Source: an uncultured Ktedonobacterales bacterium
GTDB taxonomy: Bacteria; Chloroflexota; Ktedonobacteria; Ktedonobacterales; JADMIN01
DNA: 64,000 nt
NCBI GenBank assembly: GCA_964427535.1
Contig: CAYRVF010000001.1
Location: forward strand, 2,217-66,216
Reading direction: 5' to 3'
The notes under the pieces are model-generated. The model saw nothing but the letters and a program-made list of their open reading frames with translations. It did not search any database and was not told where the DNA came from. Numbering within the stretch: the first letter of the stretch is position 1; the number at the start of each line of letters is the position of its first letter. The position numbers were made by a program, and so were the translations under genes. This document shows positions 30,088-50,175 of the stretch, piece after piece.

Positions 30088-30109
30088 AGCACGCAAGAGA
30101 GGTGCAATC

Positions 30110-32044
30110 ATGTGCGGCATAGCTGGATTCGTGAACCTCGATCTGGATCCGGAGGCCGAGGGCGCTCTGCTTCGCCAGATGACCGACATCATTCGCCATC
30201 GCGGCCCCGATGACGACGGGCACTGGCTGGGCGATGGTGCCGCACTGGGGATGCGCCGTCTCAGTATTATCGACCTGAGCGGAGGAAAACAGCCGATCGC
30301 GAATGAGGACGGCTCGGTTATTGCCGTCTTCAACGGTGAGATTTACAACTACCGCGAGCTCCGCCGCGAGTTGGAGACAGAGGGCCACACCTTCGCGACC
30401 AATAGCGACACCGAGACAATCGTCCATGCGTATGAGGATGACGGTGTCGCGTTTGTGCGCCGGTTGCGCGGGATGTTTGCTATCGCCCTGTGGGATCGGC
30501 GGCGCAGGCGTCTGGTCCTGACGCGCGATCGCTTTGGCAAGAAACCGATCCACTACATCTGCGATGACCACCGCCTCATCTTTGGGTCCGAGATCAAGTC
30601 GCTGCTGCTGGCGCCAGATGTGCCGAGGGAGCTCGATCCGGCCGCGGTGAGCCAGTATTTCACGTTTGGTTACATCTCCGCGCCCCACACGGCCTTTGCG
30701 GACATCCATAAGCTGCCGGCCGCCCACACGCTGGTATTCGAGGACGGCCGCGCCACCCTCCAGCGCTACTGGCAGCTCGACTTTACGCCGCGCTGCACCG
30801 ATGACGAAGCGACCGCAGCGCATAAGGTGCGGGAACTGCTGACCGAGGCCGTGCGTATCCGATTGATCAGCGACGTTCCGCTGGGCGCGTTTCTGAGTGG
30901 CGGCGTGGATTCAAGCGCTGTGGTGGCACTCATGTGTGAGGTCGCCGGGGAGCGGGTCAAGACGTTTTCGATTGGCTTCGAAGAAGCGGATTATAGCGAG
31001 CTGGAGTACGCCCGACTGATCGCCAAGCGCTACGACACCGACCATCGCGAGTTTATTGTGCGGATGGACCTGCTCGACGTTCTGCCACGGCTGGTGTGGG
31101 CATTCGATGAGCCATTTGCCGATGCCTCGATGATACCCACGTACTACGTGTCGAAGCTCGCGCGCGAGCACGTGACGGTAGCGCTTTCAGGCGATGGCGG
31201 TGACGAGCTGTTTGGGGGCTACAATAGCTACACCCAGGCGATGCGGGAGAACCGCATGAGCGAGCGTCTGGGGCCAATGCGCACGTTGGGACCGCTCATC
31301 TCATCCCTGCTCCCCGAAGGCACGAGGGGGAAGAACCGCTTGCGCCGGTTAAATCTGTCGCCCGAGATGCGGTGCGTGGAGGCCGGGTCCATCTACTCGA
31401 CCACACGGCGCGAACGCATCCTGCAACCAGAGTTTCTGCGCGCATACATCGATCCCTGGGGCGGGCACCTGGATCGCTTCGCCGAAGTGTCCGATCTCGA
31501 CTTCTTTACGCAGATGCAGCACGTGCATGTGGAAGAGTACCTCCCCTATGACATCCTGGTCAAAGTGGATAAGGCCAGTATGTATACGTCACTGGAGACG
31601 CGCGCGCCCATCCTCGATCATGTGCTGGCCGAGTATGTCGCGTCCTTGCCCCATAGCGTGCGCAACCTGGGCGGACACCAGAAATATCTTTTCAAGCGCG
31701 CCGTGCGCGATGTGCTACCCGACGAGAATCTGACGCGGCGCAAGATGGGTTTTGGTCTTCCCGTCGAACACTGGTTGCGCGGTGAGTTGAACGAGCTCGT
31801 CTGGGATTTGCTCACTAGTCAGCAAGCCAGGAATCGCGGCGTCATCGATACGCGGCAGGTGGAGCGCATGCTGCTCGAACACCAGCGCCATACCTACGAC
31901 CACAGTCGGCGCATCTGGGCGTGGCTCTGCTTTGAACTCTGGTGTCGCGTCTATCTCGATCGCAGCGAGCAACCAGCAGCGTCCGTGGAGCAGCTATCCG
32001 GGTACGACCGCACGCTCGCCGAGGTCGCCTCACCGCTCAGATGA
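30110..32044 (+). CDS. Asparagine-synthase-family glutamine amidotransferase (AsnB/WbpS-like), copy 1
   Basis: Ntn start MCGIAGF, PP-loop FLSGGVDSSAVV, 644 aa. The start is set at ATG 30110, preceded by GAGAGG. Confidence 0.9.
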   Translation: MCGIAGFVNLDLDPEAEGALLRQMTDIIRHRGPDDDGHWLGDGAALGMRRLSIIDLSGGKQPIANEDGSVIAVFNGEIYNYRELRRELETEGHTFATNSDTETIVHAYEDDGVAFVRRLRGMFAIALWDRRRRRLVLTRDRFGKKPIHYICDDHRLIFGSEIKSLLLAPDVPRELDPAAVSQYFTFGYISAPHTAFADIHKLPAAHTLVFEDGRATLQRYWQLDFTPRCTDDEATAAHKVRELLTEAVRIRLISDVPLGAFLSGGVDSSAVVALMCEVAGERVKTFSIGFEEADYSELEYARLIAKRYDTDHREFIVRMDLLDVLPRLVWAFDEPFADASMIPTYYVSKLAREHVTVALSGDGGDELFGGYNSYTQAMRENRMSERLGPMRTLGPLISSLLPEGTRGKNRLRRLNLSPEMRCVEAGSIYSTTRRERILQPEFLRAYIDPWGGHLDRFAEVSDLDFFTQMQHVHVEEYLPYDILVKVDKASMYTSLETRAPILDHVLAEYVASLPHSVRNLGGHQKYLFKRAVRDVLPDENLTRRKMGFGLPVEHWLRGELNELVWDLLTSQQARNRGVIDTRQVERMLLEHQRHTYDHSRRIWAWLCFELWCRVYLDRSEQPAASVEQLSGYDRTLAEVASPLR

Positions 32045-32112
32045 GGGGGACGACGGCGTCTCACGGGACGCGACAGCGATCGATGCCCGCGAGAGTGTGA
32101 GGAGGCTGGCGT

Positions 32113-33789
32113 ATGCGTCAGCATCGACATCTTCAGGCGCGACCGGGCGCACTCCATGGTGTGATCGAGCGCGCGCGACGCCAAATCGAGCGGTTACACC
32201 CCGCCCTCCTCATGGGAGTGGTAGGCGTCATCGTGATCACGCTGCTCGCCTCTGTCGCGGGGATCCAGAGCCACGTGGCGGCTAGCGACCAGCAGGCATC
32301 CGGCAGGCCGGGCGCACAAGGGACTCCGGTCACCTCCAACCCGCAAGACGCACACAGCTCGGCTATTGCGCGTGAGAATGCCAATGTCGGCACCAATGCC
32401 TGGCTCATCTCGCCGGAACAAACGGCGAGGAATCAGATCCAAGCGTACGCAAGCGCCACATCGGTGCTACCGGGTCAGCGGTTGACCTTCCACGTGAGCG
32501 TGCAACAGGACGGCATGCCCTACTCCATCGATGTGTACCGGCTGGGATGGTATGGCGGACTGGGTGGCCGACTCATGCTGGACGTTCAGCAGCGGGTAGG
32601 TCATGCGCAGGGCTACTACGATGCGGGCACGCACACACTGGTCGGCTGTTCGTCCTGCACTGTGGATCAGAGCGTTGGTCTGGTGGAGGCGCATTGGCAG
32701 CCCTCCTACGTCCTCACGGTACCCACAAGTTGGACGACGGGAGTCTATGAGGCGAAATTTACCGACGCAAATGACAAACAGACGTCCGTGTCGTTCGACG
32801 TGGCGGGGAGCTCGCGTTCCACGTACCTGGCCATCACTGCGGTGGCAACCGAGGCGGCATACAATACGTGGGGCGGGTATAGCCTCTACGTGGGTCCCGA
32901 TGACACATACGGATCGCGAGCGTTCAAGGTCTCCCTGAACCGGCCAACCGCTGGTGTGGACTCGACAGAAGGGCTGAATTTTGAGATCGACACCATCCGC
33001 TGGCTGGAGCGGATGGGCTATGACGTCACCTACACAAGCGGCGTCGATCTGCACGAACATCCCGAGCAGCTCCGGACGCATCGGGCGGTGCTGATCCTCG
33101 GACACAGCGAGCACTGGTCCAAGGAGATGCGCGATGGCGTCGAAGCAGCGCGCGACGCGGGCGTCGGTCTGGCATTCCTGGGTGGTGGCGACGTCCACAT
33201 GCAGATTCGCTTCGAGCCAGCGGGCGACGGCACACCGGATCGGACGATCGTGGGCTATAGGGATGCCGCGCTCGATCCTCTGAATGGTGTGGATAACGCT
33301 CGCGTCACCGTGGAATGGCGCAGCCCCCCTGTCTCCCGACCGGAGAACGCACTCACGGGACTCATGTATTCCTCGTATACACAATCGCCGTCGGGATTTC
33401 CGTGGCAATTGAGCAGTTGGGCGCGCTCTCCTCTGTTAGAGGGAACAGGACTGCAGCGCGGGCAGTCGTACGGTTGTGATATCGTCGGCTACGTGTGGGA
33501 TGAGGAGTCCGACCACAATGGCGCCACTCCTGCCGGACTCAATGATCTTGGCGCATCGCCGACACGGACTTTTCTCGGCACAACTGACGCCGGGGACACA
33601 ACATATTACGTTGCCAGCTCGGGAGCCTTGGTCTTCGATGCCGGGACGGTCAACTGGGGCTACGCGCTGGATAGCTTCCGTCTCGTGCCGCCGAATGACT
33701 GCAGCGGTCAAACCGCGCCGGTGCCGGGATTGCAGAAACTCATGTCGAACGTCATGGCGGCACTCATCGTCAAGCAGAGCCATCCCTAA
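32113..33789 (+). CDS. Membrane-anchored exported protein of the N,N-dimethylformamidase beta-subunit-like (DUF6605) family
   Basis: GAGGAGG RBS and an N-terminal TM helix (LLMGVVGVIVITLLASVAG). Strings IQAYASATSVLPGQRLTFHVS..IDVYRLGWYGGLGGR and AAYNTWGGYSLYVGPDD..RAFKVSLNRP are recalled from that family. Confidence 0.6.
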   Translation: MRQHRHLQARPGALHGVIERARRQIERLHPALLMGVVGVIVITLLASVAGIQSHVAASDQQASGRPGAQGTPVTSNPQDAHSSAIARENANVGTNAWLISPEQTARNQIQAYASATSVLPGQRLTFHVSVQQDGMPYSIDVYRLGWYGGLGGRLMLDVQQRVGHAQGYYDAGTHTLVGCSSCTVDQSVGLVEAHWQPSYVLTVPTSWTTGVYEAKFTDANDKQTSVSFDVAGSSRSTYLAITAVATEAAYNTWGGYSLYVGPDDTYGSRAFKVSLNRPTAGVDSTEGLNFEIDTIRWLERMGYDVTYTSGVDLHEHPEQLRTHRAVLILGHSEHWSKEMRDGVEAARDAGVGLAFLGGGDVHMQIRFEPAGDGTPDRTIVGYRDAALDPLNGVDNARVTVEWRSPPVSRPENALTGLMYSSYTQSPSGFPWQLSSWARSPLLEGTGLQRGQSYGCDIVGYVWDEESDHNGATPAGLNDLGASPTRTFLGTTDAGDTTYYVASSGALVFDAGTVNWGYALDSFRLVPPNDCSGQTAPVPGLQKLMSNVMAALIVKQSHP

Positions 33790-33851
33790 CACGCCTACCG
33801 TACTGCGCGAGGTGAGCCATCCCGAGCCGCTTCGCCCATTCGCCTTGAGTT

Positions 33852-35168
33852 TCACCCATTGGCGTTGAGACGAACGCGGAAATACACGATAGAGCCGTTC
33901 GATTGGTAGTGGCCGTCGACGTAGTCGGCGAGGGCTGTGCCAGTGCGTGGCGCGGCGATACGGAAGGACCCTGTCCCTTCCAGGCTGTGGGAGCCAAGGC
34001 TCAGATCCACCGGTGTGCCGAGCCGGGTGCCATCTGTGTCGCCGTTGGCCGTCGGCACCACACGCAGCGCGTTGCCGCTCATGCTTATCAGGTAGAAGCG
34101 CCCGGCCGTATCCTGGATGAGCCGCGCCTTGTAATTGTCCAGCACGTCGTCCTGGACATTCACGTCTTTGACCACCACGCCTCCCTGGAGGATGGCATGG
34201 TGCAAGCCGCCGTCGGCCTCGTCCACATAGAGAACGTGCAGTCGTCCCAGTGTATCCAGGTACGCATCGATCGGGAACACGATGATGTTGACATCCTCGC
34301 CGGTGGTGCTCGGTGTGCACGGCTCTTGCGCGAGGAGCGTCTGGCTCAACTCGCCACTCGGCGTGAAAGCGTTGGCTAGATGGAACACTCGCGCAGTGTC
34401 AAAGACGAAGGTATGACCGTGGGCGCTGCAGCCTATCTCAGACTGCAGCACGTCACGCACGGCGACGATGCTGAGATCGTTGTTCGAGCCGAGCAGGTAG
34501 AAACCATATGTGTAGCGGTACGGGATCTGTTGTTTGGCGTACGTCCACGTCCCCATAGCCGGGTTGTACACGGCCAGGTAGAATTGGCCGGGCACGTCGT
34601 CACCAGTCTGCGCCGCTACTATCGTCCCTTGCGCATTGGCATCGACACCCGCGTAGCCCTGGCCGCCGTCCCACGTACCAGGCAGGATGGTCGTCGAGAA
34701 CGATGTGCCTCCGTCAGTTGAGACCACATCGGAGAATTTCCCGTTCACATATGGGAACACGTGGATGGCGTCGTGCGCTCCCCGCACAATGTTCGTCGGC
34801 TCCAACCCCGCCCGCCCCTGATACACGAGCGTCCACGTGCCAGTGGAGCTCGACCGTTTCATCACATGATAGTTGCCGTCCTGCGCGTTGTAGACGAGGT
34901 ACACGTCGCCATTGGACAACCGGATGATACGGCTCTTGTGCTGCCCCCAATAGTCGGCGAAGCCAGTCGTCACATCGGTGGCAACCACCTCCAGGCGCTC
35001 CAGCGACGGGGACGGAGCGGGCGCGGGACGCTCTAATGTCGGGGTCGGAGCTGGTGTTGGTATCACCACGACCCTGCTGCTCCTGGCGCACCCGCCCAGC
35101 AGGGTCGCCAGGAGGCTCGTCACGAGAAGCGCAAGTATTGCCATGCGTGTGCGCAGAGCATGCGGCAT
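33852..35168 (-). CDS. Putative lipoprotein, beta-propeller/BNR (Asp-box)-containing
   Basis: With the start at ATG 35168 the N-terminus MPHALRTRMAILALLVTSLLATLLGGC carries a lipobox. One Asp-box-like VSTDGGTSF is present. The protein is Thr/Gly/Tyr-rich and beta-type. The track start at 35405 is unlikely. Confidence 0.55.
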   Translation of the reverse strand: MPHALRTRMAILALLVTSLLATLLGGCARSSRVVVIPTPAPTPTLERPAPAPSPSLERLEVVATDVTTGFADYWGQHKSRIIRLSNGDVYLVYNAQDGNYHVMKRSSSTGTWTLVYQGRAGLEPTNIVRGAHDAIHVFPYVNGKFSDVVSTDGGTSFSTTILPGTWDGGQGYAGVDANAQGTIVAAQTGDDVPGQFYLAVYNPAMGTWTYAKQQIPYRYTYGFYLLGSNNDLSIVAVRDVLQSEIGCSAHGHTFVFDTARVFHLANAFTPSGELSQTLLAQEPCTPSTTGEDVNIIVFPIDAYLDTLGRLHVLYVDEADGGLHHAILQGGVVVKDVNVQDDVLDNYKARLIQDTAGRFYLISMSGNALRVVPTANGDTDGTRLGTPVDLSLGSHSLEGTGSFRIAAPRTGTALADYVDGHYQSNGSIVYFRVRLNANG

Positions 35169-35996
35169 GTGCCAGGCCGGGAGCAGTGAATGGAGTCTGG
35201 CAGCGGTGAATATGGGGCGAGTGGCACCCTTGCCGTGAGAGCGCCGGCGCCCTCTCTCGGGGCGGGTGAAAGCTTGTCGTGTTCCGATCAGACCTGGCCT
35301 TGGGGCAGAACGGCTCCAGGAGACCATGCCATCCACGTTCCGCGCATCACTGGATTGTTGATCAGCGGATCGAATCCGGTAATGATCATCCGCATGTCTG
35401 CTCATGGCTCCTCCAGTGACGCCTAGAACCCCAAGCAGACAGCTGGTGGATGCTTTCCCGCCTCGTCAGGTATCACCATTAGCCGTAGCATCTCGCCGCG
35501 AGTGTGCCGCACACTAGTGGTGCGGTGCGCCGACCCACCGCCAAAAAGAGGCTTCAAGGTGTGGTGGCTGTCCTTGGCCATCAGCCGTCCCAGTGTCCGC
35601 ACAGTCCACTTCCAGCAGCACGATCTGCACTCGCCGGCGTGCTTGCTCGGCCATCAAGACGGCGACATCCTCTTCGAGCGTCATGCCTCTACGGTACACC
35701 ATGGCGCGTCCATCTGAGTAGATAGTACGCTGGAGGGTTAGGGCGTGTTATCAATCGTGCGGCGTTAAGTCGACTGTGGGCCGCCGTGTGCAGATGTGAC
35801 GTGCGGCCAGGCTCTCGGGATGGCGGCCCAGCAGCGGCGGGTAAACCGTGCGGAGGATAGCGTGTGGGGGCCGCTCCAACGGTGGCGGTCCGGAGACGGC
35901 GAGCCACTACGTCCTACAGGAGATTGGACAATCCGACATGGCAGTGCTCGGCTATGTAGGCGACGTAGGCGAAAGCCACCGCCGCAGGACTCCCCA

Positions 35997-36029
35997 TCAA
36001 CGCTCAGTCAACGCTCAATCAACGCTCAG
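35997..36029. repeat. 11-bp tandem repeat x3 (TCAACGCTCAG / TCAACGCTCAA / TCAACGCTCAG)
   Basis: Read directly, in the 740-nt intergenic region between the lipoprotein and methyltransferase genes. Confidence 0.6.
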
Positions 36030-36145
36030 AGTGCGGCCGGATAGCGCCACGCACGCACTGCGACCGCACTGGGGTCATCGCGGCCCGATGGAGCCGCCAA
36101 CCGATGGGAAGCAAAGCGGCCGCTCTCATATCTCCCTCGCGGCGC

Positions 36146-37000
36146 TCATGTCGACAGCCTAGCCAGGACAAGGTAGGCAATGCCCGTAGAGCGTATCACG
36201 GGGACGTTTTGATCGGCTAGGCGCTGTAGTATATGGTGGACCGAAAGTGCGAGCCGATTGGGTAGAACGTTATGGCTGAGGAAGGTGAACGGCGCGAACC
36301 CGAGAGTCTTGCTCCTGACCTTTGTCATGCCGACATCCCCTAGCGCTCCATCAATGAAACGGCGCCGGTGGTAGACCAACTTTGGCAACTGCTCAGGCAA
36401 TCCAACCTGGAACCCAATCCGCCTGAGGACTGCTCTCACACGCCGCCTGAGGGGGGCGAGTGATGGATTGAGACGTGGGTCGAGCAGTGCGGGCAGCCCT
36501 ATCCAATTAGAGGTCGTCAGGCGGACATGTCCCTCTGGTTTGGTCACGCGAGCCATCTCTCGTAGTGCCGGTTCTGCATGTGCCAGCCAGGGAAAGACCC
36601 CAATCGCCAGCACGAGGTCAAAGAAGTCGTCTGCGTACGTCAGATCGTAGACATCACCAACCTCCACGTTGATCTGGCAGTCGCGTCCGGCCTGGGCCAC
36701 GTTTTCACGCGCTTGCTGCACCATCGCGTCACTGACATCAATCGCCTGAACACGCAATCCCCGCTCCGCGAGTGCAATGGCCATCAAGCCCGCACCGCAG
36801 CCAATCTCGAGGACCTGCGAACCTGGCGCAAGAGCGAGGCTATCGATCCAGTCGAGCACCGCCGCGCTGCGTGCTCGCATCGTCTCGGCATACGCACTCT
36901 GGCTGCTGTACAGATCATTCCAATGCGACGACTGGGATTGGAACTGAGCGGTCACTTTTGCTTGATATTCCTCACGGGCATCATCAACCACACTCTTCAT
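36146..37000 (-). CDS. Class I SAM-dependent methyltransferase (paralog A)
   Basis: Motif I VLEIGCGAGLMAIALAERGLRVQAIDVS. Clearly paralogous along its length to the ORF at 41834..42718. Confidence 0.85.
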   Translation of the reverse strand: MKSVVDDAREEYQAKVTAQFQSQSSHWNDLYSSQSAYAETMRARSAAVLDWIDSLALAPGSQVLEIGCGAGLMAIALAERGLRVQAIDVSDAMVQQARENVAQAGRDCQINVEVGDVYDLTYADDFFDLVLAIGVFPWLAHAEPALREMARVTKPEGHVRLTTSNWIGLPALLDPRLNPSLAPLRRRVRAVLRRIGFQVGLPEQLPKLVYHRRRFIDGALGDVGMTKVRSKTLGFAPFTFLSHNVLPNRLALSVHHILQRLADQNVPVIRSTGIAYLVLARLST

Positions 37001-37471
37001 CGCGAATCCTCCGCGCTCTTCTCATGTGCCACACGCTCCCGTGATGGGAGTGATGAGTGGCAAGGGCCACCTCTGGATTCAAGTTGTCCTGGATGCAAAC
37101 CAGAGTGCCAAATTCAAGCAGCGTCGTTGCAGCCAACCAGTGATTTTCATTGACTGCCTCTGGCTGCATGCACCCTCGCACCAGGCTCTATGTCCACAAC
37201 ACGCTTTCAGCATATGTGTCCGGGTGTCGAATTACCCCAGGGGAATCCCTAGCCTTGTGCAGGCGATCCGCTGATGGAGACGCGCAAAGAACTGCACCCA
37301 GCGTGCACCTGGTTGCTGCGGACTCAGACTGTGCCATGCGATGGACCTGTTCAGTGTGCACCCTCGTGGCGTCATGCGAAGACCAGCCATTCGCTCATGC
37401 GTGCCCAAGGTGGGCATGCCCTATCGACGCATGCGGTCGGCGCTGACGACGAGCACGCTTTCCACACGTAG

Positions 37472-37505
37472 CGGCCCCACCGGCGGCGCGCCGCCGGTGG
37501 GGCCG
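37472..37505. promoter_or_regulatory. Perfect 34-bp GC-rich palindrome CGGCCCCACCGGCGGCG|CGCCGCCGGTGGGGCCG
   Basis: All 17 base pairs were checked by hand. It lies 184 nt upstream of the comA-like start and is followed by TAATGTCTTTG. Confidence 0.5.
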
Positions 37506-37688
37506 TAATGTCTTTGCGGAGCACGCCGACTTTGCTCTCTCAGGCGCATCGATCCGCTTAGGGCCAGGGCTCGACGATAACGCCGCGCAGGCGGTGATAG
37601 ATGCGTGTCCCTTGCCTGTGTGGGGCAGTTCACCCATTCAACTGCGCCAAGAAACGTGTCTACATTGGGGTACGAAGAGGAAGCAGAA

Positions 37689-38522
37689 ATGGAGGGTTGC
37701 GAGATGCGCGACGGTCACAATCACCTGAGCACACAGGAATACCTGCACTTGATCGGCGTGGCAGAGCTGCCACCGTTGATATGTCCATTCGATCCAGGCT
37801 ATGACCCCGTGACGGTGGAGAGCCATCTCGAGCAGAGTGCCCACCTGATGACCTCGCTGAAAATCTCGATGGCATGCTGGCTAGTTGCTGATGAACGAGC
37901 TACCCGCCGGAAGATCGCAGCGGCACGAGCTCACAATGTGCCGGCGGTGACCGGGGGGACCCCACTCGAGATCGCTGTGGTTCAGGGACAACTGGAGGCA
38001 TATCTTGACCTCTGCGCGGACCTGGGGATCTCACGGATCGAATGTGCGGAAGGCTTCACCACCCTGCCTATGGAACCCCGGGTGATCGTGCAGATGGCCC
38101 GTGAGCGAGGACTCACTGTCCAGTACGAGATGGGCAAGAAGCATGAAGGGCCCTTCACCACGGACTCCCTCAATGAGGCCATCGCACGAGGGAAGGCATG
38201 GCTGGATGGCGGGGCAGTACAGCTTGTCGTCGAGGCCCGCGAGAGCGCACGCGGGATTGGGGCATTCGGGGACGACGGATCCCTCAACACGGATGTTGCG
38301 GACCGCTTCGCCGAGGAATTCGGCCTTGATGTCGCCATGTTCGAGGCTCCCAATAAACCGAGCCAGTTTGCATTCCTCGATCACTTCGGACCGCACGTCC
38401 AGCTCTGCAACGTGCGCCTGGAGGAACTGCTGCGTGTCGAGATCTACCGCCGCGGCCTCCATGCGGACGCGTTCGAGAAACCCAAGCTGCGGCCGGCATA
38501 CATGGTGCGCGAGCCTGCATAG
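37689..38522 (+). CDS. comA: (2R)-phospho-3-sulfolactate synthase family protein (ComA/YitD-like)
   Basis: LKISMACW.., GGTPLEIA, IECAEGF, VVEARESARGIG and MFEAPNKPSQFAFLDHFGPHVQLCNV..LRVEIYRRGLHADAF parallel the conserved blocks of ComA/YitD as I recall them. The start is set at ATG 37689, after GAGGAAGCAGAA. Confidence 0.8.
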   Translation: MEGCEMRDGHNHLSTQEYLHLIGVAELPPLICPFDPGYDPVTVESHLEQSAHLMTSLKISMACWLVADERATRRKIAAARAHNVPAVTGGTPLEIAVVQGQLEAYLDLCADLGISRIECAEGFTTLPMEPRVIVQMARERGLTVQYEMGKKHEGPFTTDSLNEAIARGKAWLDGGAVQLVVEARESARGIGAFGDDGSLNTDVADRFAEEFGLDVAMFEAPNKPSQFAFLDHFGPHVQLCNVRLEELLRVEIYRRGLHADAFEKPKLRPAYMVREPA

Positions 38523-38536
38523 AACGGGAGCTGGTC

Positions 38537-39262
38537 ATGCGGAAGACAGTAGCGATTGATTGCTTTCCTCAGAGCGTGGAAACCTATCGGGATGGCTACG
38601 CGCTTGTCGCGGTCGACGTGATCAGGGCCACGACCACGGCAGTGACCTGTGTCGCCCTTGGTCGAAGGTGCTATCCGGTCCCGTCGATCGAGGCCGCGGC
38701 TCCACTCGCCGCGAGGCTCACTGAACCGCTCCTTGTGGGAGAGGTTGGTGGGAACATGCCTACTGGCTTCGACATGAACAACAGTCCGGCAGACTTGGAG
38801 ACTCGGACCGACATTCACCGCCCGATGATTCATGTGTCTTCCTCAGGCACAAAGCTCATGTGCGGAGCTGCCGAGTCGCAGCCGATGTACATCGCCTGCC
38901 TGCGGAATTACAGTGCGTTAGTCACCCATCTGGCGGCTCACCATTCAATGGTCGCCGTTATCGGTGCAGGCTCCAAGGGCGAGTTCCGCGAGGAGGATCA
39001 ACTTTGCTGCGCCTGGATTGCAGAAGGTCTCCTCGAGGAGGGTTTCGTACCCCAGGACGTCAGGACAGCCGCAATTATTGAGCGATGGAGCGGTATCCCC
39101 GTCGACGCGATCGTCGAAGGTGCAAGCGCTGAATATCTCCGGCGTACCGACCAAACACGGGACCTCGACTTTATCCTAGCGCACGTCAATGACCTCAACG
39201 ATGTGTACCAAGTCGAGGATGGTCAGGTGGTGAGGCAGCTGGCAGAGACATTGGTCGGCTAA
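38537..39262 (+). CDS. comB: 2-phosphosulfolactate phosphatase family protein (ComB/YitC-like)
   Basis: AVDVIRATTTAVT (family signature D-V/I-x-R-A-T/S-T) and HVSSSGTK. 241 aa. Lies 14 nt after the comA-like stop, with a GGGAG RBS. Confidence 0.75.
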   Translation: MRKTVAIDCFPQSVETYRDGYALVAVDVIRATTTAVTCVALGRRCYPVPSIEAAAPLAARLTEPLLVGEVGGNMPTGFDMNNSPADLETRTDIHRPMIHVSSSGTKLMCGAAESQPMYIACLRNYSALVTHLAAHHSMVAVIGAGSKGEFREEDQLCCAWIAEGLLEEGFVPQDVRTAAIIERWSGIPVDAIVEGASAEYLRRTDQTRDLDFILAHVNDLNDVYQVEDGQVVRQLAETLVG

Positions 39263-39423
39263 GAGAGCTCTGGGGTCGCTGCATACTCTCCAGGCACCGT
39301 CCCAGCACAACTCGGCATTACCCAGCCGCACGGTCCACTTGCCAAGGGGCAGTCGTCGGCCTCAGTCCATCCCGCCGTTCCTGTGTGCACTACCACCCAG
39401 CGATCACTCTACGGAGGTGATGC

Positions 39424-40341
39424 ATGGCCCTAGGATCCGGCCCCTATCCGTGCAGTCCAGAGCTTCCAACACGCATACATGACCATAGCGCGGTGCGGGT
39501 CTCGGGATATGCAGAGGCTCCCATCGGGGTCTTTGACTCTGGTGTAGGAGGATTGACCATCCTTGCGGCGCTACGCGATGAGTTGCCAGGCGAAAGCTAT
39601 GTGTACTTCGGTGACTCGGCGCACTTCCCCTATGGCATGCGGAGTGACAGCGAAATTATCGAGTTGTCGACCCACGCAGGCCAGTTTCTGCTTGAACAAG
39701 GTGTGAAGCTGCTCGTTGTCGCCTGCAACACTGCCTCACTTGCGGCACTCGACACGTTACGCACCACCTTCCATGTTCCGTTGGTGGGTGTCGTCCCGGC
39801 AGTCGAAGCTGCCGTACGGGCTACGAAGAACGGACGCATTGGCATTGCCGTAACTAATCATGCTGCTCAAGCCCCACACCTACGCCGCCTCATTGATGAG
39901 TTTGCACAGGGCATCCAAGTCCACGTCGCTGGTTGTTCTGAGTTAGTGGCACTCGTCGAGGACGGCAAGTTCGCGGGGCCCGCGGTAGAGCAAGCGGTAA
40001 AGCAGGCACTGACCCCCATGTTGATGGACGGTGTGGACGTCATTGTGCTGGGCTGCACCCATTTTCCCGCCTTGCGTCCTGTGGTCGAGCGTATTGCCGG
40101 GTGTCGTGTGAAAGTCGTTGATAGCACCACAGCTGTCGCGCGCCGCACCCACCGGGTGCTGGCTGCAGAGGCGTTGATCCAGCCTGCCACCTTCCATCAC
40201 GAAGTCTCTGGCACGCTTGAGGTGTGGTGTAGTGGTGAGGCGGCCGCGTTCAGCACAGTTGCAAGCAAACTGCTGGGCAGCCGCATCGTCGCCCGTCAGA
40301 CCACACTTCAAGGCAGACAATCAGGAACACTTTGGGTGTGA
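39424..40341 (+). CDS. murI: Glutamate racemase
   Basis: IGVFDSGVGGLTIL, YFGDSAHFPYG, the catalytic VVACNTAS and GCTHFP. GGAGG lies 6 nt upstream of the ATG. ~30-aa N-terminal extension. Confidence 0.9.
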   Translation: MALGSGPYPCSPELPTRIHDHSAVRVSGYAEAPIGVFDSGVGGLTILAALRDELPGESYVYFGDSAHFPYGMRSDSEIIELSTHAGQFLLEQGVKLLVVACNTASLAALDTLRTTFHVPLVGVVPAVEAAVRATKNGRIGIAVTNHAAQAPHLRRLIDEFAQGIQVHVAGCSELVALVEDGKFAGPAVEQAVKQALTPMLMDGVDVIVLGCTHFPALRPVVERIAGCRVKVVDSTTAVARRTHRVLAAEALIQPATFHHEVSGTLEVWCSGEAAAFSTVASKLLGSRIVARQTTLQGRQSGTLWV

Positions 40342-40360
40342 CGTGGGCAGGTAACACGAA

Positions 40361-41764
40361 ATGGTGACACCGTCGGGGGTTGCCATGTCGTCCTTCACGG
40401 ACGGGGGCCCCTGCAATGCCCGCGGCATACTGCGAATCAGGAGGTCGGACGCAGTGAGTAGCTGGCCAGATACGACTCGAGAAACCATTTTGAATGTACC
40501 AATCGAGCGCGACACACTCACCGCCTCGGGCCTCCAATCAGCAACTCGACAGGTCACATATGACGCACTGGTGCTCGATGCGAGACTGCGCCAAGCGTTG
40601 GCGGCTGTACGTTCGCTCGGCAGGCGCGGTCTGAAAGTAGCGGCAGTGGGATCCTCTGATCGGCAACCGGCCTTGGCCTCGCGGTGGTGTCAGCAGGCCT
40701 TCGTCTGCCCAACTGAAGAGGGTACTGATGCGTATTTGCCGTACCTTGAGCAACTGCTCGAGCATACCCCCGCACGGGTGTTGGTCGCCTCGTCTGAAGG
40801 AACCATACCCTTGCTACGTCGTCATCGTGAGCGACTCGAGCAACGGGTACGTATTGCTCTCGCAGCAGAACCGGCCCTCGCCATCGCTAGCAACAAAGCG
40901 CGTACGTTGGAGATTGCCAGGCAGTTGGGCCTGTGCACCCCTCGCTCTGTCCATGTCGGGGCAGCGAGTGACGTCCGCGCGGCCGTGCGTGATATCGGGC
41001 TCCCAGCGGTGGTCAAGCCGATGCTCTCATGGGCGCAAGGCCAAGGCCAGGGTACGTACGTGATAAGTACGTTGGTAACGACACCCGACGACGCGCTGCG
41101 GGCTGTGGAAAAGTTGGCGAGCGTCGGCATGACAGCGCTCTTTCAAGAATTCCTGTCCGGCAGACGCGAGTCCCTCACCTTCATGTATGCAAACCACCAG
41201 ATGTACGCGCGTTTTGCTCAATGGGGTAAGCGTGTATACCCTCCATTGGGGGGCCAATCTGTGCTGGGCCAAAGCATTGCGGTACCGCCAGATATTGGCG
41301 ATCAAGCCGAGCGTCTCGTGCGTGAAATAGAGTTGGAAGGTTGTTCGCACGTCGAATTCCGACGTGACAGTGCTGGACATCCCTACCTCATGGAAATCAA
41401 TCCGCGTCTCGCCGCATCCACCGAGCTTGCTGTGCGTTCAGGGGTCGACTTTCCCTATCTGCTGTACCAGTGGGCAAGCGGACAAAAGATAGATGTGGTG
41501 GAGGGGTATCGCGTCGGCGTCTGGTTGCGCTACTTGTCGGGTGACCTCATGACCACGGTAGCAGCAGTGCAGCAACGTGGCAGACCGGGAGTAGCACCGC
41601 CGGCCAAGGCAATCGTCGACTTCTGCCTCGCGTTCTTCGTGCCTATGGGGTACTACTACGTCGATTGGCGGGATCCCGGTCCAGCGTGGACAGCGACGAC
41701 TGGCTTTGTCGGTCATGCGGTGCGAAAGGCAAGAACGCTGCGATTGTCACGCGCGCCGCGTTGA
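40361..41764 (+). CDS. ATP-grasp-fold carboxylate-amine ligase (substrate unknown)
   Basis: ALVLDARLRQALAAVRSLGRRGLKV (pre-ATP-grasp), LPAVVKP, LFQEFL, HVEFRRDSAGHPYLMEINPRL. The true start may be downstream of 40361. Confidence 0.8.
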   Translation: MVTPSGVAMSSFTDGGPCNARGILRIRRSDAVSSWPDTTRETILNVPIERDTLTASGLQSATRQVTYDALVLDARLRQALAAVRSLGRRGLKVAAVGSSDRQPALASRWCQQAFVCPTEEGTDAYLPYLEQLLEHTPARVLVASSEGTIPLLRRHRERLEQRVRIALAAEPALAIASNKARTLEIARQLGLCTPRSVHVGAASDVRAAVRDIGLPAVVKPMLSWAQGQGQGTYVISTLVTTPDDALRAVEKLASVGMTALFQEFLSGRRESLTFMYANHQMYARFAQWGKRVYPPLGGQSVLGQSIAVPPDIGDQAERLVREIELEGCSHVEFRRDSAGHPYLMEINPRLAASTELAVRSGVDFPYLLYQWASGQKIDVVEGYRVGVWLRYLSGDLMTTVAAVQQRGRPGVAPPAKAIVDFCLAFFVPMGYYYVDWRDPGPAWTATTGFVGHAVRKARTLRLSRAPR

Positions 41765-41833
41765 TGAGTCACGGCACTTCGGCTTTACCATACGTGCTCA
41801 CGCTGGTACCGAACCGGAGCTAACCGCCTGCGC

Positions 41834-42718
41834 ATGTACGACCAGGGGGTCTCGACAATGGACCAAGCAGCTATCCCGTATCACCAGCAGCAAGCCCAGG
41901 TGAACGCCTATTTCTGGTCCCACGCGGCTTTCTGGAAAGACATCTACGGTGATGCTAGCGTGCAGGCCGAAGTGTACCGGGATCGCTTGGCGACCACACT
42001 CGCGTGGATCGACAGTTTAGCGCTGAAACCGGGCTCGCGTGTCCTCGACACTGGCTGTGGCGCAGGCTTCTTAGCAGTCGCCCTCGCCCAGCGCGGCTTT
42101 CGTGTCCAGGCGATCGACGCCGCCGAGGCTATGGTCGAGCTTTCGCGCCGACATGCGGTGGAATCTGGGACTGCCGAGCGGCTGTCAGTGCAACTCGGCG
42201 ATGTCCAAGCTCTGCCGTTCGAGGACGGGGCCTTCGACCTGGTGGTCGCCCTGGGCGTCCTTCCGTGGCTCCCACGGCCAGAGCTGGCAATGCGAGAGAT
42301 GGCGCGTGTGACGCGGCCGAACGGTTACGTCCTGCTCACGGCTGACAATCCAGCTAGGCTGATCACCGTTCTCGACCCGTGGAATTGTCCGGCGCTTGCG
42401 CCACTGCGAGGACGCGTCAAAGTCGTGCTCGGGCGCGCTGGGCGGCTTCACCCATCGCATGAGAGTACCCTGCGTGTCCCAGTCACGTATCACAGCCCAC
42501 GCCAAATCGATACAGCGCTCGCGAGCGCTCAGCTTGCCAAGACCAGAGGCATGACACTCGGGTTTGGGCCCTTCAAGATCCGGCACCGACGGCTGCTCCC
42601 GCATTCTCTAGGTATCGCGGTCCATCGGTGGCTGCAGCGCCTGGCGGATCGGGGCGTGCCGGTCTTGCGCGCCACCGGAGCACAGTACCTGGTACTCGCG
42701 AGGAAATCCGCGCTCTAG
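41834..42718 (+). CDS. Class I SAM-dependent methyltransferase (paralog B)
   Basis: VLDTGCGAGFLAVALAQRGFRVQAIDAA and C-terminal RATGAQYLVLARKS. The corresponding strings in paralog A are VLEIGCGAGLMAIALAERGLRVQAIDVS and RSTGIAYLVLARLS. Confidence 0.85.
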   Translation: MYDQGVSTMDQAAIPYHQQQAQVNAYFWSHAAFWKDIYGDASVQAEVYRDRLATTLAWIDSLALKPGSRVLDTGCGAGFLAVALAQRGFRVQAIDAAEAMVELSRRHAVESGTAERLSVQLGDVQALPFEDGAFDLVVALGVLPWLPRPELAMREMARVTRPNGYVLLTADNPARLITVLDPWNCPALAPLRGRVKVVLGRAGRLHPSHESTLRVPVTYHSPRQIDTALASAQLAKTRGMTLGFGPFKIRHRRLLPHSLGIAVHRWLQRLADRGVPVLRATGAQYLVLARKSAL

Positions 42719-43055: not shown

Positions 43056-44327
43056 ATGCACCTGAGAGCCCAACTCCGCGCCCTGTTTCGTCCAGGCAAG
43101 GCGCGTATTGCCAGCGTAGTCGTCGTTGTCGTGCTCATCCCGCTGGCGGCACTTGGAGTCCACGCGCTGCAGGTGTGCATGAGCTACGGCCCCTGCATGC
43201 CGACACAGGTAGGCACCTCGACCGGATCCGGCACCAGCTCCGCGCCCCCCGCACCGCCCACGGCGGGAAGCGCTCACACGCAGCATTATGAGTATGTCTT
43301 TCCCGATGGTGAGATGTATGTGTACGACATGGATCACGGTCACCGGCTCGTCCAGCACATCAGCTTGCCAACAACTGCTGGCGTGAGGGGCATCGTTGCA
43401 AGCCCGGTTACGCACATGCTCTACGTCAGTTACGGGGGAGATGGCGGTAACAATGGGAATGGCTCACTGCTCAAGTTCGACCTGATCGCCAATCGGATCC
43501 TCTGGACGAAACAGTATGCGCATGGCATTGACAGCATGGCCATCACGCCGGACGGCAAGTCCATCTATCTGCCCGATGGCGAGCTCACAAACAACGGCAA
43601 CTGGTACGTCATCGATGCCGCTAGCGGCGCGGAAACCGGCACCGTTCGGGGAGGGCTGGGGCCGCACAATACCATCGTCAGCCTCAACGGCACGCATGTG
43701 TACCTCGGCGGCAGGAATTACAACTATCTCGAGGTGGCGGACACGACCACCAACCACGTCATTCGGAAGATTGGGCCGCTTTGTGGTGGTGTCAGACCGT
43801 TTACCATCAATGGCAAACAAACCCTCGCCTATACAACTGCTACCGGCTTCCTCGGTTTCCAGGTCAGTGACATCACGACGGGCCGGGTACTCTATACCGT
43901 GCCAGTCAAGGGATTCTCGTGGGATACGGGAGGACCCTCTGCTCCAAGCCACGGCATCTCGCTGTCTCCCAACGAGAAGGAACTCTATGTCATGGATTCG
44001 CCGAACAGTCGCGTCCACGTCTTCGACGTGAGCGGCGTTCCAGCCGTGGCACCTCGGCAGGTTGCCGATATCAAGGTCACGTCGATGGCAGGAAGCGAAT
44101 CACCGTGCGCGTACGATTGCGCGAAAGACGGCTGGCTTCAACACAGCGGGGACGGGCGCTTCGTCTATGTCGGAGACTCTGGCGACGTGATCGACACGGC
44201 AACGCGTACCGTGACAACCACCCTACCGCCACTATCCAACACCCGGAAGCTGCTCGAAATTGACTGGCAGAACGGGACGCCGGTCTTCACCACCTCGCGC
44301 AGCGGGCTGGGCTACGTCGTCCGCTGA
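43056..44327 (+). CDS. Membrane-anchored exported beta-propeller protein (YVTN/lactonase-like repeats)
   Basis: N-terminal TM helix IASVVVVVVLIPLAALGV, a Ser/Pro/Thr linker, then repeated ..YV(S/M/G)..G.. beta-strand blocks (LYVSYGGDG, IYLPDGE, VYLGGRN, LYVMDSPN, VYVGDSGD). Confidence 0.6.
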   Translation: MHLRAQLRALFRPGKARIASVVVVVVLIPLAALGVHALQVCMSYGPCMPTQVGTSTGSGTSSAPPAPPTAGSAHTQHYEYVFPDGEMYVYDMDHGHRLVQHISLPTTAGVRGIVASPVTHMLYVSYGGDGGNNGNGSLLKFDLIANRILWTKQYAHGIDSMAITPDGKSIYLPDGELTNNGNWYVIDAASGAETGTVRGGLGPHNTIVSLNGTHVYLGGRNYNYLEVADTTTNHVIRKIGPLCGGVRPFTINGKQTLAYTTATGFLGFQVSDITTGRVLYTVPVKGFSWDTGGPSAPSHGISLSPNEKELYVMDSPNSRVHVFDVSGVPAVAPRQVADIKVTSMAGSESPCAYDCAKDGWLQHSGDGRFVYVGDSGDVIDTATRTVTTTLPPLSNTRKLLEIDWQNGTPVFTTSRSGLGYVVR

Positions 44328-44591
44328 CACCAAGCGCCACACCGCCCCCCGCGCCTAGCATGCTCAAGGATGCCAGGTGCGCTGGTGCTGGTGTGATAGG
44401 AGTTGTGTCATTGCCGCGGGCCAGCGATGCTCAGTCGTCCATGCGGGACATCAGCCTAGTATCACGCCCAGGCTTTTATCTATAGTCCGTGCGCGGGCAG
44501 GAAGCTACACTGCATTGGTACGACCGTTGGGCAGGTGCTGCGCAGCACCTGTTCCGTATCGCAGGACAGGACACGCAGGGCGAGGGGGCTC

Positions 44592-45743
44592 ATGTACAGG
44601 AAACTCCGCAGCATACAGCCAGTACGCACACTCGTCGGGGCCTGCCTTTACTACAGCGGACTGGTGCCACTTCTACGCTGGCGGAGGCGTCGCCAGGGGC
44701 AGCGTCTGATCATCCTCACGTACCACCGGGCGGCCGGGGATGGTTTGCGTGGTCAGTTGCTCTACCTCCAGCGGCACTATCGCCTCCTCCCCCTCGAGGT
44801 GGCGCTTGAGGAGCTCTCCGCGCCTCGTAGTGGTGACGCACAGCAGCAGCCCGATCAGCGTACCACGGCGGTGTTGACCTTCGACGACGGGTACCGCGAC
44901 AACTACACGCACCTCTTCCCGCTCGTGTGTGAGCTCGGCATCCCAGTCACCATCTTCCTGATTCCAGGCTACATCGACAGCGGCGACCATTTCTGGTGGC
45001 TCGAAGGCGAACGCCTCGTCCGCCGTGGGCAGGCCAGCGCAGCCAGCTTCGCGGGCCGCACCTACCACCTGGATAACTCAGAGGAGCGTGAGGCGCTGAC
45101 GCGGGCGATTGACGCCGGCCTACGGTACGCGACGTCGATCGCTGACCGGGAGGCATTTCTCGCCTCGATACGTGAGGCGCTAGCCGTACCGCCATCGGTA
45201 GCTGGCGAAGAGTTGCCAGCCCTACCGCTTACCTGGGCGCAGGTGCGAGAGATGGAGGCGAGCGGGTGGGTCTCGTATGGCGCCCATACGATGCACCATC
45301 CCGTCCTGGCCTGTCTGCGCGATCCGGCCGAGGTCGAGCGCGAGATAGGCGAGTGCCGCATGGTGCTCGAGCAGCAACTGGGTCACCCTGTGCGCACGCT
45401 AGCCTACCCAATAGGGCACCACGAGCACCTCGGTGAGTATGCGCTCGAGGCCGTGCGCGCAGCGGGCTACCGTTGGGCAGCAATCAACTCGACCGGAGTG
45501 AACACTCCACAGAGCGATCCATTGCTTCTGCGGCGTATCGGAGCGGAGGCCAGTGACCACTGGTTGGTCCTGGCAGCGCGCGTAGCCGGGGTGCGGGTGC
45601 CGGGCCTGCTGTTTGCACCGAAGAGCAAGACCAGGATTGAGCCGGTCCACAACACTCCATCTCAGCAGACACACACCGCAATGGGAGTCTATACGAGTCC
45701 CGTGGATGAGCCAGTGAGCGGACTGTCACGCCAACTGCAGTAA
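44592..45743 (+). CDS. Polysaccharide deacetylase (CE4 / NodB homology domain)
   Basis: VLTFDDGYRDNYTHLFP (TFDDG motif), GAHTMHHPVL, and an N-terminal TM helix. The start is set at ATG 44592, after GAGGGGG. Confidence 0.85.
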   Translation: MYRKLRSIQPVRTLVGACLYYSGLVPLLRWRRRRQGQRLIILTYHRAAGDGLRGQLLYLQRHYRLLPLEVALEELSAPRSGDAQQQPDQRTTAVLTFDDGYRDNYTHLFPLVCELGIPVTIFLIPGYIDSGDHFWWLEGERLVRRGQASAASFAGRTYHLDNSEEREALTRAIDAGLRYATSIADREAFLASIREALAVPPSVAGEELPALPLTWAQVREMEASGWVSYGAHTMHHPVLACLRDPAEVEREIGECRMVLEQQLGHPVRTLAYPIGHHEHLGEYALEAVRAAGYRWAAINSTGVNTPQSDPLLLRRIGAEASDHWLVLAARVAGVRVPGLLFAPKSKTRIEPVHNTPSQQTHTAMGVYTSPVDEPVSGLSRQLQ

Positions 45744-45843
45744 GCCGGTAGCGCGAATGTCGCTGTCGCGGTGAGGCAGTGACCACGTGCGACCCAAGCG
45801 GCTGCATTGGCAGTGTGCGTTAGCCCCCAGAACGGCAGGAGAG

Positions 45844-48816: not shown

Positions 48817-48834
48817 CGACGCCAGAACGGAGGG

Positions 48835-50148: not shown

Positions 50149-50175
50149 CCGGCCCGGACGAGACCGTCAGCTCTC

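Follow-up and report, generated by a model that had tools for sequence, protein, structure and literature searches.

A candidate module for sulfolactate and D-glutamate tailoring in a surface-heteropolysaccharide locus of an uncultured Ktedonobacterales bacterium

The window considered here is a 64,000-nucleotide stretch of contig CAYRVF010000001.1 (assembly GCA_964427535.1) from an uncultured Ktedonobacterales bacterium of the Chloroflexota, in which genes related to those of the coenzyme M enzymes ComA and ComB lie in a glycan locus, together with genes for a glutamate racemase (MurI), an ATP-grasp ligase and two methyltransferases (MTs). The initial annotation had placed at 36146-42718 a cassette supplying sulfolactate and D-glutamate. 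All six open reading frames (ORFs) are present at their annotated coordinates, each above its Pfam threshold, and the assignments of ComA, ComB, MurI and the ATP-grasp enzyme passed profile searches (Pfam, and TIGR00067 for MurI). The extent of the cassette has to be revised, since a conserved beta-propeller gene and a polysaccharide deacetylase (PDA) gene extend the module to 45743; its boundaries should better be set at 36146-45743. The genes and features are as follows.

36146..37000, minus strand: MT1, class I S-adenosylmethionine (SAM)-dependent methyltransferase, paralog of MT2 (Methyltransf_11, 82.9 bits)
37001..37703: divergent intergenic region between MT1 and ComA, holding a perfect 16-bp GC-rich hairpin at 37471-37506
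37704..38522, plus strand: ComA-like (2R)-phospho-3-sulfolactate synthase (PF02679, 158.9 bits against a cut-off of 25.2)
38537..39262, plus strand: ComB-like 2-phosphosulfolactate phosphatase, 14 bp past the end of ComA (PF04029, 119.2 bits against a cut-off of 26.4)
39424..40341, plus strand: MurI-type glutamate racemase paralog (TIGR00067, 221 bits)
40361..41764, plus strand: ATP-grasp ligase, ATPgrasp_Ter/PRK12767-like (PF15632, 40.5 bits against a cut-off of 29.1)
41834..42718, plus strand: MT2, class I SAM-dependent methyltransferase, paralog of MT1 (Methyltransf_11, 86.8 bits)
43056..44327, plus strand: YVTN-type beta-propeller with an N-terminal membrane anchor (TIGR02276 YVTN repeat), beyond the cassette as first annotated
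44535..45743, plus strand: CE4 polysaccharide deacetylase (PF01522, 73.5 bits against a cut-off of 23.1), likewise beyond it
22759..36145: upstream half of the glycan locus, with UDP-glucose dehydrogenase, GalU-like enzyme, acetyltransferase, GFO 3-dehydrogenase, epimerase, family 4 glycosyltransferase (GT4), AsnB amidotransferase, DMFA2_C-like protein and lipoprotein
45787..62767: downstream half of the glycan locus, with MurJ-Wzy fusion, GT4, MT3, FemAB-like GNAT, AsnB, two GT4s, Wzz/tyrosine kinase, DegT and priming Bac_transf

The placement of the cassette inside a glycan locus is borne out by the Wzx/Wzy-type gene set around it. From about 22.7 to 62.8 kb, a Bac_transf enzyme, a MurJ-Wzy_C fusion, a Wzz/P-loop kinase and four GT4s identify a Wzx/Wzy-dependent locus. 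Among its sugar-supply genes, the TuaD-like UDP-glucose dehydrogenase and the GalU-like enzyme would give glucuronic acid (GlcA), and the UDP-GlcNAc 3-dehydrogenase-like GFO protein, the DegT aminotransferase and the NeuD/PglB-type acetyltransferase would give a 3-amino or 3-acetamido sugar. The locus also encodes two XrtA/PEP-CTERM-type AsnB amidotransferases, the FemAB-like GNAT and the CE4 deacetylase. Since it is predicted to make both GlcA and a de-N-acetylated amino sugar, a uronic carboxylate and an amine are both plausible attachment points.

ComA adds sulfite to phosphoenolpyruvate (PEP) to yield phosphosulfolactate, which ComB dephosphorylates to (2R)-3-sulfolactate. The ComA ORF of the window is open from 37605; its end at 38522 stands as annotated, whereas the start, initially put at 37689, is placed by the gene caller at 37704, for a protein of 272 aa. 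The PF02679 match covers profile positions 17-243 of 243, and residues 28-259 align with residues 18-250 of Methanocaldococcus jannaschii ComA (1QWG/24FO), with conservation of the EhGKK, ExRES and FEAPxK segments, whose residues we take to have catalytic roles. The protein is nearer to M. jannaschii ComA (107 bits) than to Bacillus subtilis YitD (59 bits). ComB aligns with 2Z0J and 1VR0 and keeps the DVIRATT, GExGG, FDxxNSP and AGxxGEF motifs. ComA scores below the equivalog model TIGR03849 (arch_ComA; 154.2 bits against a cut-off of 280), and the combination of family-level with sub-equivalog scores marks both proteins as divergent bacterial members. A coenzyme M pathway does not fit the annotated ORFs of the window, among which no Ldh_2 or thiamine pyrophosphate-dependent decarboxylase family was found.

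Relatives were gathered in two scans. The first, of reference genomes for the ATP-grasp enzyme, gave 76 loci that were analyzed by tblastn and ORF clustering, an ATP-grasp gene being called in 68; the second, of metagenomes for ComA, gave 80 loci at 70-81 % identity. Close relatives of the cassette occur in at least 196 soil-metagenome stretches. The unit that recurs in the roughly 130 related loci consists of one or more MTs, ComA and ComB together with an ATP-grasp gene, nearly always among glycan genes. In the metagenome loci, ComA neighbours ComB (76/80), a homologue of the window MTs (62/80), a D-2-hydroxyacid dehydrogenase (D2HADH, 32/80), an FMN-dependent L-2-hydroxyacid dehydrogenase (FMNdh, 18/80) and, in 10/80 each, an ATP-grasp enzyme of the window type, a homologue of the 43056-44327 protein and a CE4 deacetylase. 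The MTs, described at first as mere brackets of the cassette, thus adjoin ComA in most of these loci and are core members of the module. When only ComA loci of at least 6 kb are considered (n=48), 33 hold an ATP-grasp gene of the window family or of a second family termed c6, 36 an MT, and 32 at least one glycan gene family. The FMNdh and D2HADH pair, which has no homologue in the window, is found in 20 of the 48 and a racemase in four, with no overlap between the two sets; no racemase occurs in the 80 metagenome loci. The anticipated co-occurrence with glycosyltransferase (GT) and Wzy genes therefore holds for ComA-ComB, the MTs and ATP-grasp, which recur in other genomes and in dozens of contigs from soil metagenomes with GT, Wzy, Wzz, deacetylase and AsnB genes, but not for MurI, which is a rare alternative to the FMNdh and D2HADH pair rather than a general cassette member.

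Among the reference-genome loci, ComAB and an MT stand beside the ATP-grasp gene only in L002/L003, L004, L005 and L026, where GT4, Wzy/MurJ, Wzz, DMFA2_C and deacetylase genes surround them and both gene order and strand are shuffled. The second ligase family, c6, comprises very divergent ATP-grasp proteins of about 435 aa (24 % identity to the window enzyme; CPSase_L_D2, 20.8 bits; no NCBIfam model) and is in practice an unannotated family. In about 20 loci it lies always directly 3' of ComA-ComB, in the order MT-MT-ComA-ComB-c6, and is accompanied by GTs, a Wzy/flippase fusion, AsnB and deacetylase-like genes (L096:7959-9266; L089-L094, L097, L100, L108-L114, L129-L137, L152, L157). Six other loci (L148, L151, L154, L156, L159 and L160, ComA lying near position 10000 in the longer of them) carry ComA-ComB of 71-72 % identity with an ornithine cyclodeaminase/mu-crystallin gene and a GNAT gene (Acetyltransf_3). 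These loci lack MT, ATP-grasp and glycan genes, suggesting a different sulfolactate-derived product.

The racemase scores 221.3 bits against TIGR00067, above the equivalog cut-off of 146.65 (Asp_Glu_race, 93.7 bits), and its DSGVGG, PYG, ACNT and GCTHFP motifs are intact, with both catalytic cysteines present. Its nearest relatives are housekeeping MurI proteins at 65-67 % identity, the overall range to housekeeping copies being 60-67 %. Housekeeping murI of Ktedonobacteria has a synteny of its own (GroES/EL, biotinyl protein, methylmalonyl-CoA mutase, MurI, NADH dehydrogenase), and the window racemase departs from it on both counts, by its location in a glycan locus and by a leucine at position 106 instead of glutamine. 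Leu106 (ACNTAS-L) is shared by all eight cassette-linked racemases, that is, the window copy, those of L004 and L005, four fusion domains and P0178, and every housekeeping copy has Gln there; the cassette-linked proteins also sit on longer branches. The four fusion domains belong to protein clusters in which the racemase is joined to ATP-grasp (P0004, P0009, P0011 and P0016). The shared Leu106, the separate housekeeping synteny and the longer branches together indicate that the window racemase is a dedicated paralog which, judging from its sequence, most likely still racemises glutamate. In L164 (3540-5392), a resolvase and an IS605 OrfB/TnpB-like element are inserted in the housekeeping murI synteny, between the biotinyl-protein gene and the methylmalonyl-CoA mutase gene.

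The ATP-grasp enzyme is not a member of the Ddl/VanA group (PRK01372, 34 bits against 243; TIGR01205, 23.8 bits against 245), TupA-like PF14305 is not among its Pfam matches at E <= 0.01, and tblastn found no second copy in the window. The core of its AlphaFold model (residues 64-350; predicted local distance difference test (pLDDT) scores of 70-95) has the ATP-grasp fold, and the termini are of low confidence (mean pLDDT 62). Foldseek matched the model with a probability of 1.0 to PurK, RizA, BL00235 and Ddl at template modeling scores of about 0.4, i.e., to generic neighbours. Homologues number more than 2000; among the best 120, at 60-72 % identity, the few with a named source are all from Ktedonobacteria. 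Besides the racemase, class I MT (P0087) and sulfotransferase (P0118) domains are found fused to the enzyme. Its phylogeny follows the type of partner: racemase-linked and dehydrogenase-linked enzymes form sister clades, apart from a majority linked to a flavoprotein, C2. The racemase-linked clade has 72 % bootstrap support and the two clades together 58 %, and their smallest common clade comprises at most 15 of the 86 leaves in 91.5 % of replicates.

This enzyme is not specific to the cassette, since most Ktedonobacteria glycan loci encode, without ComAB, a homologue of about 60 % identity next to a CE4 deacetylase and C2. The latter is a FAD/NAD(P)-binding protein of about 410 aa (Pyr_redox_2/3, with weak ArsO/YpdA/Lys-Orn monooxygenase similarity) and accompanies the ATP-grasp gene in 44 of the 68 loci where one was called, other phyla included. 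In the usual Ktedonobacteria layout, MurJ-Wzy, UDP-glucose dehydrogenase and Wzz genes on one strand are followed by DMFA2_C-like, PDA, ATP-grasp and C2 genes, and the PDA-ATP-grasp-C2 unit often exists in two or three tandem copies. C2 accompanies ComA in none of the 48 loci of at least 6 kb and is also absent from L002/L003, L004, L005 and L026. Its absence where ComAB is present points to ATP-grasp and the deacetylase as a conserved platform, with ComAB, the racemase and the MTs being one among several accessory sets that can be exchanged. The PDA/ATP-grasp/C2 triad was found in cultured strains, as in K. rubrisoli (CP035758; L007:8800-17300), and in L019, L020, L022, L023, L027, L030, L032, L065 and others. 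All cultured strains in the set, namely K. rubrisoli, four Dictyobacter species, Thermosporothrix hazakensis and strain brp13, are of the flavoprotein type, and ComAB is found in none of them. The ATP-grasp and C2 pair also occurs in metagenome-assembled genomes of Gemmatimonadota, Rokubacteria, Nitrospirae and others, and, at 57-61 % identity for ATP-grasp, on archaea-binned contigs (L050 and L055, labeled Methanobacteriota archaeon; L071, labeled Nitrosopolaris); these contigs share soil studies with many bacterial matches, indicating mis-binning or inter-domain transfer.

The flanking MTs are paralogs on opposite strands, as annotated, with 49 % identity over 286 aa (E = 9e-89), and match Methyltransf_11/25 at 80-87 bits; their match to the NodS profile is below threshold. 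The closest PDB relative of MT2 is the sugar O-methyltransferase RebM (3BUS, 75 bits), and since the nearest PDB relatives (RebM, MitM, a glucose O-methyltransferase and LahSB) differ in acceptor type, the acceptor is left unassigned. In the metagenome loci, the MT homologues beside ComA are often tandem pairs or a fused double MT. The deacetylase shows TFDDG, HTMHH and RTLAYP motifs in its translation, and of the 68 loci with an ATP-grasp call, 47 also have a PDA homologue. Other fusions involve these partners: L169 reads ComA-ComB-ATP-grasp::MT-D2HADH, and in L168 (5680-11660) an ATP-grasp::sulfotransferase fusion precedes a bifunctional ATP sulfurylase/adenosine phosphosulfate (APS) kinase and a PDA::MT fusion. 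The PDA::MT, ATP-grasp::MT and ATP-grasp::sulfotransferase fusions tie deacetylase, MT and ligase to one substrate. L168 is a version of the module that provides a sulfo group from 3'-phosphoadenosine-5'-phosphosulfate (PAPS) without ComAB supply, resembling N-deacetylase/sulfotransferase logic. Homologues of the beta-propeller, at 57-80 % identity, lie in 10 ComA loci between ATP-grasp and the FMNdh and D2HADH genes; no other protein of the ComAB cassettes is as well conserved. The top PDB match of the beta-propeller is a Methanosarcina mazei S-layer protein (1L0Q), and it could be a surface protein carrying or binding the glycan.

From this gene content, we consider with moderate confidence that 36146-45743 is a swappable tailoring module attaching sulfolactate and D-glutamate in a Wzx/Wzy-dependent surface-heteropolysaccharide locus. 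The proposal that the cassette supplies both acids to a glycan thus gains from the linkage and the fusions, but it is tempered by the rarity of the racemase and by the occurrence of ATP-grasp mostly without ComAB. ComA and ComB, as their full-length homology and conserved motifs suggest, would turn PEP and sulfite into (2R)-3-sulfolactate, and the dedicated MurI paralog, given its intact catalytic motifs and the ligase fusions of its relatives, would provide extra D-glutamate. The CE4 deacetylase would de-N-acetylate an amino sugar in the repeat unit. The single ATP-grasp enzyme would then activate a carboxylate as an acyl phosphate and make an amide, most likely by joining D-glutamate and/or sulfolactate to the freed sugar amine, or alternatively by joining the C6 carboxylate of GlcA to the amine of D-glutamate. 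An amide link to uronic acids, as initially proposed, is therefore one option; because ATP-grasp and the deacetylase are so tightly paired, acylation at the amine of a de-N-acetylated amino sugar is no less likely. The two MT paralogs would methylate the substituent or the sugar, and the predicted product is a surface polymer bearing a carbon-bonded sulfonate plus D-glutamate. In sister cassettes, FMNdh and D2HADH replace the racemase and would invert (R)- to (S)-sulfolactate; with a racemase in one version and the dehydrogenase pair in the other, the ligase would receive a D-configured acid in both.

More broadly, we put forward as a tentative proposal that abundant soil Ktedonobacteria decorate a surface heteropolysaccharide or a surface-protein glycan with sulfolactate, here together with D-glutamate and methylation, and that ATP-grasp and the deacetylase form a general plug-in platform. 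The acid handled by this platform would be set by the supply genes, whether ComAB with a racemase, ComAB with dehydrogenases, a sulfotransferase with PAPS synthase, or the flavoprotein. In the literature searched, neither polysaccharides nor Ktedonobacteria are linked to sulfolactate, ComA or ComB, and the terms 'sulfolactyl' and 'sulfolactic acid' do not occur.

Several observations weigh against the attachment of sulfolactate and D-glutamate to a glycan. The window has one ATP-grasp enzyme for two candidate acids, which leaves at least one attachment step without an assigned enzyme; the other step could fall to the two AsnB-like enzymes, to the FemAB-like GNAT or to repeated action of ATP-grasp itself. 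The substrate cannot be read from the ATP-grasp family, most of which occurs without ComAB, nor inferred from the PDB sequence search and the AlphaFold/Foldseek comparison, which gave generic ATP-grasp matches only. Bootstrap support for the partner-specific ATP-grasp clades is moderate, and many metagenome contigs are too short to reveal their context. The ComA-ComB pairs associated with an ornithine cyclodeaminase gene, away from glycan genes, imply that sulfolactate has at least one other use in the communities sampled. Finally, ComA and ComB miss every NCBIfam equivalog cut-off.

This last point, together with the functions of most bacterial and plant ComA-family members, which are not known to have been tested, favours the view that the ComA and ComB homologues perform another chemistry, with another nucleophile on PEP or another phosphoester, so that the substituent would not be a sulfonate. 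We regard this as highly improbable in light of the full-length alignment to M. jannaschii ComA with its conserved catalytic segments, of the strict ComA-ComB pairing (76/80) expected of a two-step pathway, and of the parallel variant with PAPS-dependent sulfation. Moreover, the frequent 2HADH and FMN-dependent dehydrogenase partners fit known sulfolactate enzymology (PMC6303947). A PDB search with the cassette D2HADH returned generic 2HADH matches without a subfamily, so that no SlcC-like specificity could be assigned. It is likewise unlikely, though less so, that the product is a free small molecule merely co-regulated with the glycan locus, such as sulfolactate or a sulfolactyl-D-glutamate osmolyte, a Bacillus-type spore solute or a signal. 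B. subtilis spores accumulate sulfolactate and Ktedonobacteria form spores, ATP-grasp enzymes often make small dipeptide-like metabolites, and the ComA-ComB pairs of 71-72 % identity are found beside ornithine cyclodeaminase-family and GNAT genes, away from glycan genes. Nevertheless, the MT, ComA, ComB and ATP-grasp set stays with glycan genes despite the rearrangement of its loci, the ligase is paired with a CE4 deacetylase (47/68) and connected to it through the PDA::MT and ATP-grasp::MT fusions, and the window ComA is closer to the archaeal enzyme than to YitD by the scores given above (107 and 59 bits). A spore or solute function, raised as the alternative in the initial annotation, is thus disfavoured for this locus.

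The role of the racemase allows two other explanations. One, improbable in our view, is that the MurI-like enzyme acts on sulfolactate or derived cysteate, as would the dehydrogenase pair, yielding a single D-configured sulfonated substituent and no D-glutamate. The strict exclusion between racemase and FMNdh plus D2HADH in otherwise equivalent cassettes, whose ATP-grasp enzymes form sister clades, fits this view, as does the fact that one substituent would need one ATP-grasp enzyme; the Q106L change lies three residues away from the catalytic ACNT motif, and CuyB, a PF01177 enzyme to which the window racemase has a weak match (50 bits), racemises a sulfonated amino acid (PMC11193023). On the other hand, the enzyme scores above the glutamate racemase equivalog cut-off, keeps the canonical MurI motifs and is 60-67 % identical to housekeeping MurI, and the window encodes no dehydrogenase or aminotransferase to convert sulfolactate into cysteate. 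To our knowledge, racemisation of 2-hydroxy acids is not an established activity in the PF01177-type racemase superfamily. The other explanation, that murI is the peptidoglycan glutamate racemase of the cell, adjacent by chance to a functional cassette made only of MT, ComA, ComB and ATP-grasp, draws on the absence of racemase from the 80 metagenome ComA loci and on the resemblance of the protein to ordinary MurI. It is very unlikely considering that the housekeeping MurI of this lineage has its own conserved synteny elsewhere, that the Q106L marker and the long branch are common to the window copy and other cassette-linked copies, and that four independent protein clusters have the racemase fused to ATP-grasp.

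The base composition of the cassette differs little from that of its surroundings. The spot count of the initial annotation (32/60 at 37681-37740) is exact, and the lower local GC that it reported is real but small, with 0.602 for the cassette and 0.626 and 0.614 for the flanks. GC content at third codon positions (GC3) is 0.61-0.71 in the six cassette genes versus a mean of 0.738 in 19 other glycan genes (Mann-Whitney p = 0.0005), a slight reduction that fits a mobile module. The contrast drawn with guaB (43/60; plus strand, near 5326), however, stems mostly from a step at about 13 kb, GC being 0.677 for 1-13 kb and 0.616 for 13-64 kb; a cassette-specific GC island as its source was rejected. 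The first 13 kb, with a GC3 of 0.82-0.92, hold guaB, RecD2, a PrsW/FHA protein and a glycogen-debranching-like enzyme; elsewhere GC3 is about 0.7. The entire 13001-64000 stretch, regulators and glycan genes together, may have been acquired as a large island. An Rfam scan of the whole window returned no family above threshold, and a promoter and terminator scan of 35.4-46 kb gave nothing beyond shuffled expectation except one GC hairpin; no sigma-70-like promoter and no Rfam family were found in the MT1-ComA intergenic region. The hairpin, a perfect 16-bp GC-rich inverted repeat upstream of ComA (GCGGCCCCACCGGCGG/CGCCGCCGGTGGGGCCGT; 37471-37506), lacks the T-tract of a canonical terminator and may have a regulatory function or represent a repeat element.

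Other features of the glycan locus deserve mention. A MurJ-type flippase (227 bits) and a Wzy_C polymerase/ligase domain are fused in one 1009-aa ORF (45787-48816). This fusion (960-1008 aa) is kept across Ktedonobacteria loci, the two parts being apparently separate genes in L004, and in another lineage Wzy_C is fused instead with a Polysacc_synt flippase (L109:6652-9657). The glycan genes are immediately preceded by a cluster of regulators (13770-22135), which comprises three LuxR/GerE-type proteins, two of them with receiver domains, a HisKA_3 kinase and a 792-aa PDZ-GAF-HATPase kinase, all candidate regulators of the locus; the polyprenyl synthetase gene that comes next (21146-22135) is a candidate for lipid-carrier supply. 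The DMFA2_C-domain protein (32113-33789; 300 bits; N-terminal membrane anchor) is conserved in the Ktedonobacteria locus between Wzz and the deacetylase, and the predicted 517-aa lipoprotein beside it (33852-35405) matches no Pfam family and is without homologues in the fetched loci. A mycosporine-like or N-acetylglutaminylglutamine amide (NAGGN)-like small-molecule cluster was rejected, as the window has no sugar-phosphate cyclase and its AsnB genes better fit an exopolysaccharide-type amidotransferase model.

If the proposed attachment is correct, the product would be the first glycan with the C-sulfonated hydroxy acid sulfolactate, which would join taurine and sulfoquinovose as a glycoconjugate sulfonate, and the two known roles of ComA and ComB, in the synthesis of coenzyme M and of spore sulfolactate, would be joined by a third. 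Carbon-bonded sulfur makes up a large part of soil organic sulfur, and the close relatives of the cassette in at least 196 soil-metagenome stretches would then point to a widespread, hitherto unrecognised biosynthesis of polymer-bound sulfonate sulfur in soils. The analysis also exposes a modular platform of ATP-grasp and CE4 deacetylase with exchangeable supply genes, whose commonest form, with the flavoprotein, is uncharacterised and is present in cultured Ktedonobacteria, where it can be studied directly.

Known systems share parts of this architecture. Methanogen ComA/ComB (coenzyme M) and B. subtilis YitD/YitC (spore sulfolactate) belong to the same two families, with the same adjacent order and the same predicted reactions. 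Unlike them, the genes of the window lack ComC and ComDE partners and sit with ATP-grasp, MTs and a CE4 deacetylase in a glycan locus, and the predicted fate of sulfolactate is covalent attachment rather than use as a cofactor or free solute. Inversion of the sulfolactate stereocentre by two dehydrogenases of opposite stereospecificity is described in PMC6303947 and PMC11193023, which cite Denger & Cook (2010) and assign SlcC to the 2HADH family. As in the SlcC/ComC pair of Chromohalobacter salexigens, as summarised there, the sister cassettes associate an L-specific (FMN-dependent) and a D-specific (2HADH) dehydrogenase, here beside ComAB. According to these summaries, the known system is catabolic and its ComC is of the Ldh_2 family, whereas the sister cassettes appear biosynthetic, their L-specific enzyme belongs to the FMN_dh family, and the window has neither enzyme. 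The alternation of racemase and dehydrogenase in sister cassettes also recalls Ddl with alanine racemase and VanA with VanH, related ligases fed by a racemase or by a D-2-hydroxyacid dehydrogenase. The analogy is one of logic only, the window ligase scoring 19-34 bits, far under the cut-offs of these families, and substrates and polymer being different.

In general terms, the predicted tailoring is also analogous to that of Nod factors by NodB, NodS, NodA, NodH and NodPQ, which combines CE4 deacetylation, methylation, N-acylation and a sulfo group; the likeness is closest in L168, with its sulfotransferase, ATP sulfurylase/APS kinase and PDA::MT fusion. In the window, however, acylation would be carried out by ATP-grasp with a free acid rather than by NodA with an acyl-acyl carrier protein, the C-sulfonate would come from ComAB instead of being a sulfate ester, and the acceptor would be a Wzy-type polymer, not a chitin oligomer. 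A precedent for the ligase step is found in the Campylobacter jejuni capsule, where an ATP-grasp enzyme amidates the GlcA carboxylate (PMC11800379). This enzyme, the C-terminal TupA-like amidoligase of Cj1438 from C. jejuni HS:2 (PMC11800379; Riegert et al., 2022, PMC9619395), is encoded in a polysaccharide locus, joins a sugar acid and an amine in an amide, and has supply genes for a small non-sugar amine alongside its gene. The window enzyme, which may work in a similar way, belongs to another subfamily (PF15632/PRK12767, without a PF14305/TupA match), and the predicted substituents are sulfolactate and D-glutamate in place of serinol or ethanolamine phosphate. Seen against these systems, ATP-grasp amidoligase tailoring cassettes are already known, and what would be new is the recruitment of coenzyme M enzymes to provide a C-sulfonated acyl group within a plug-in architecture.

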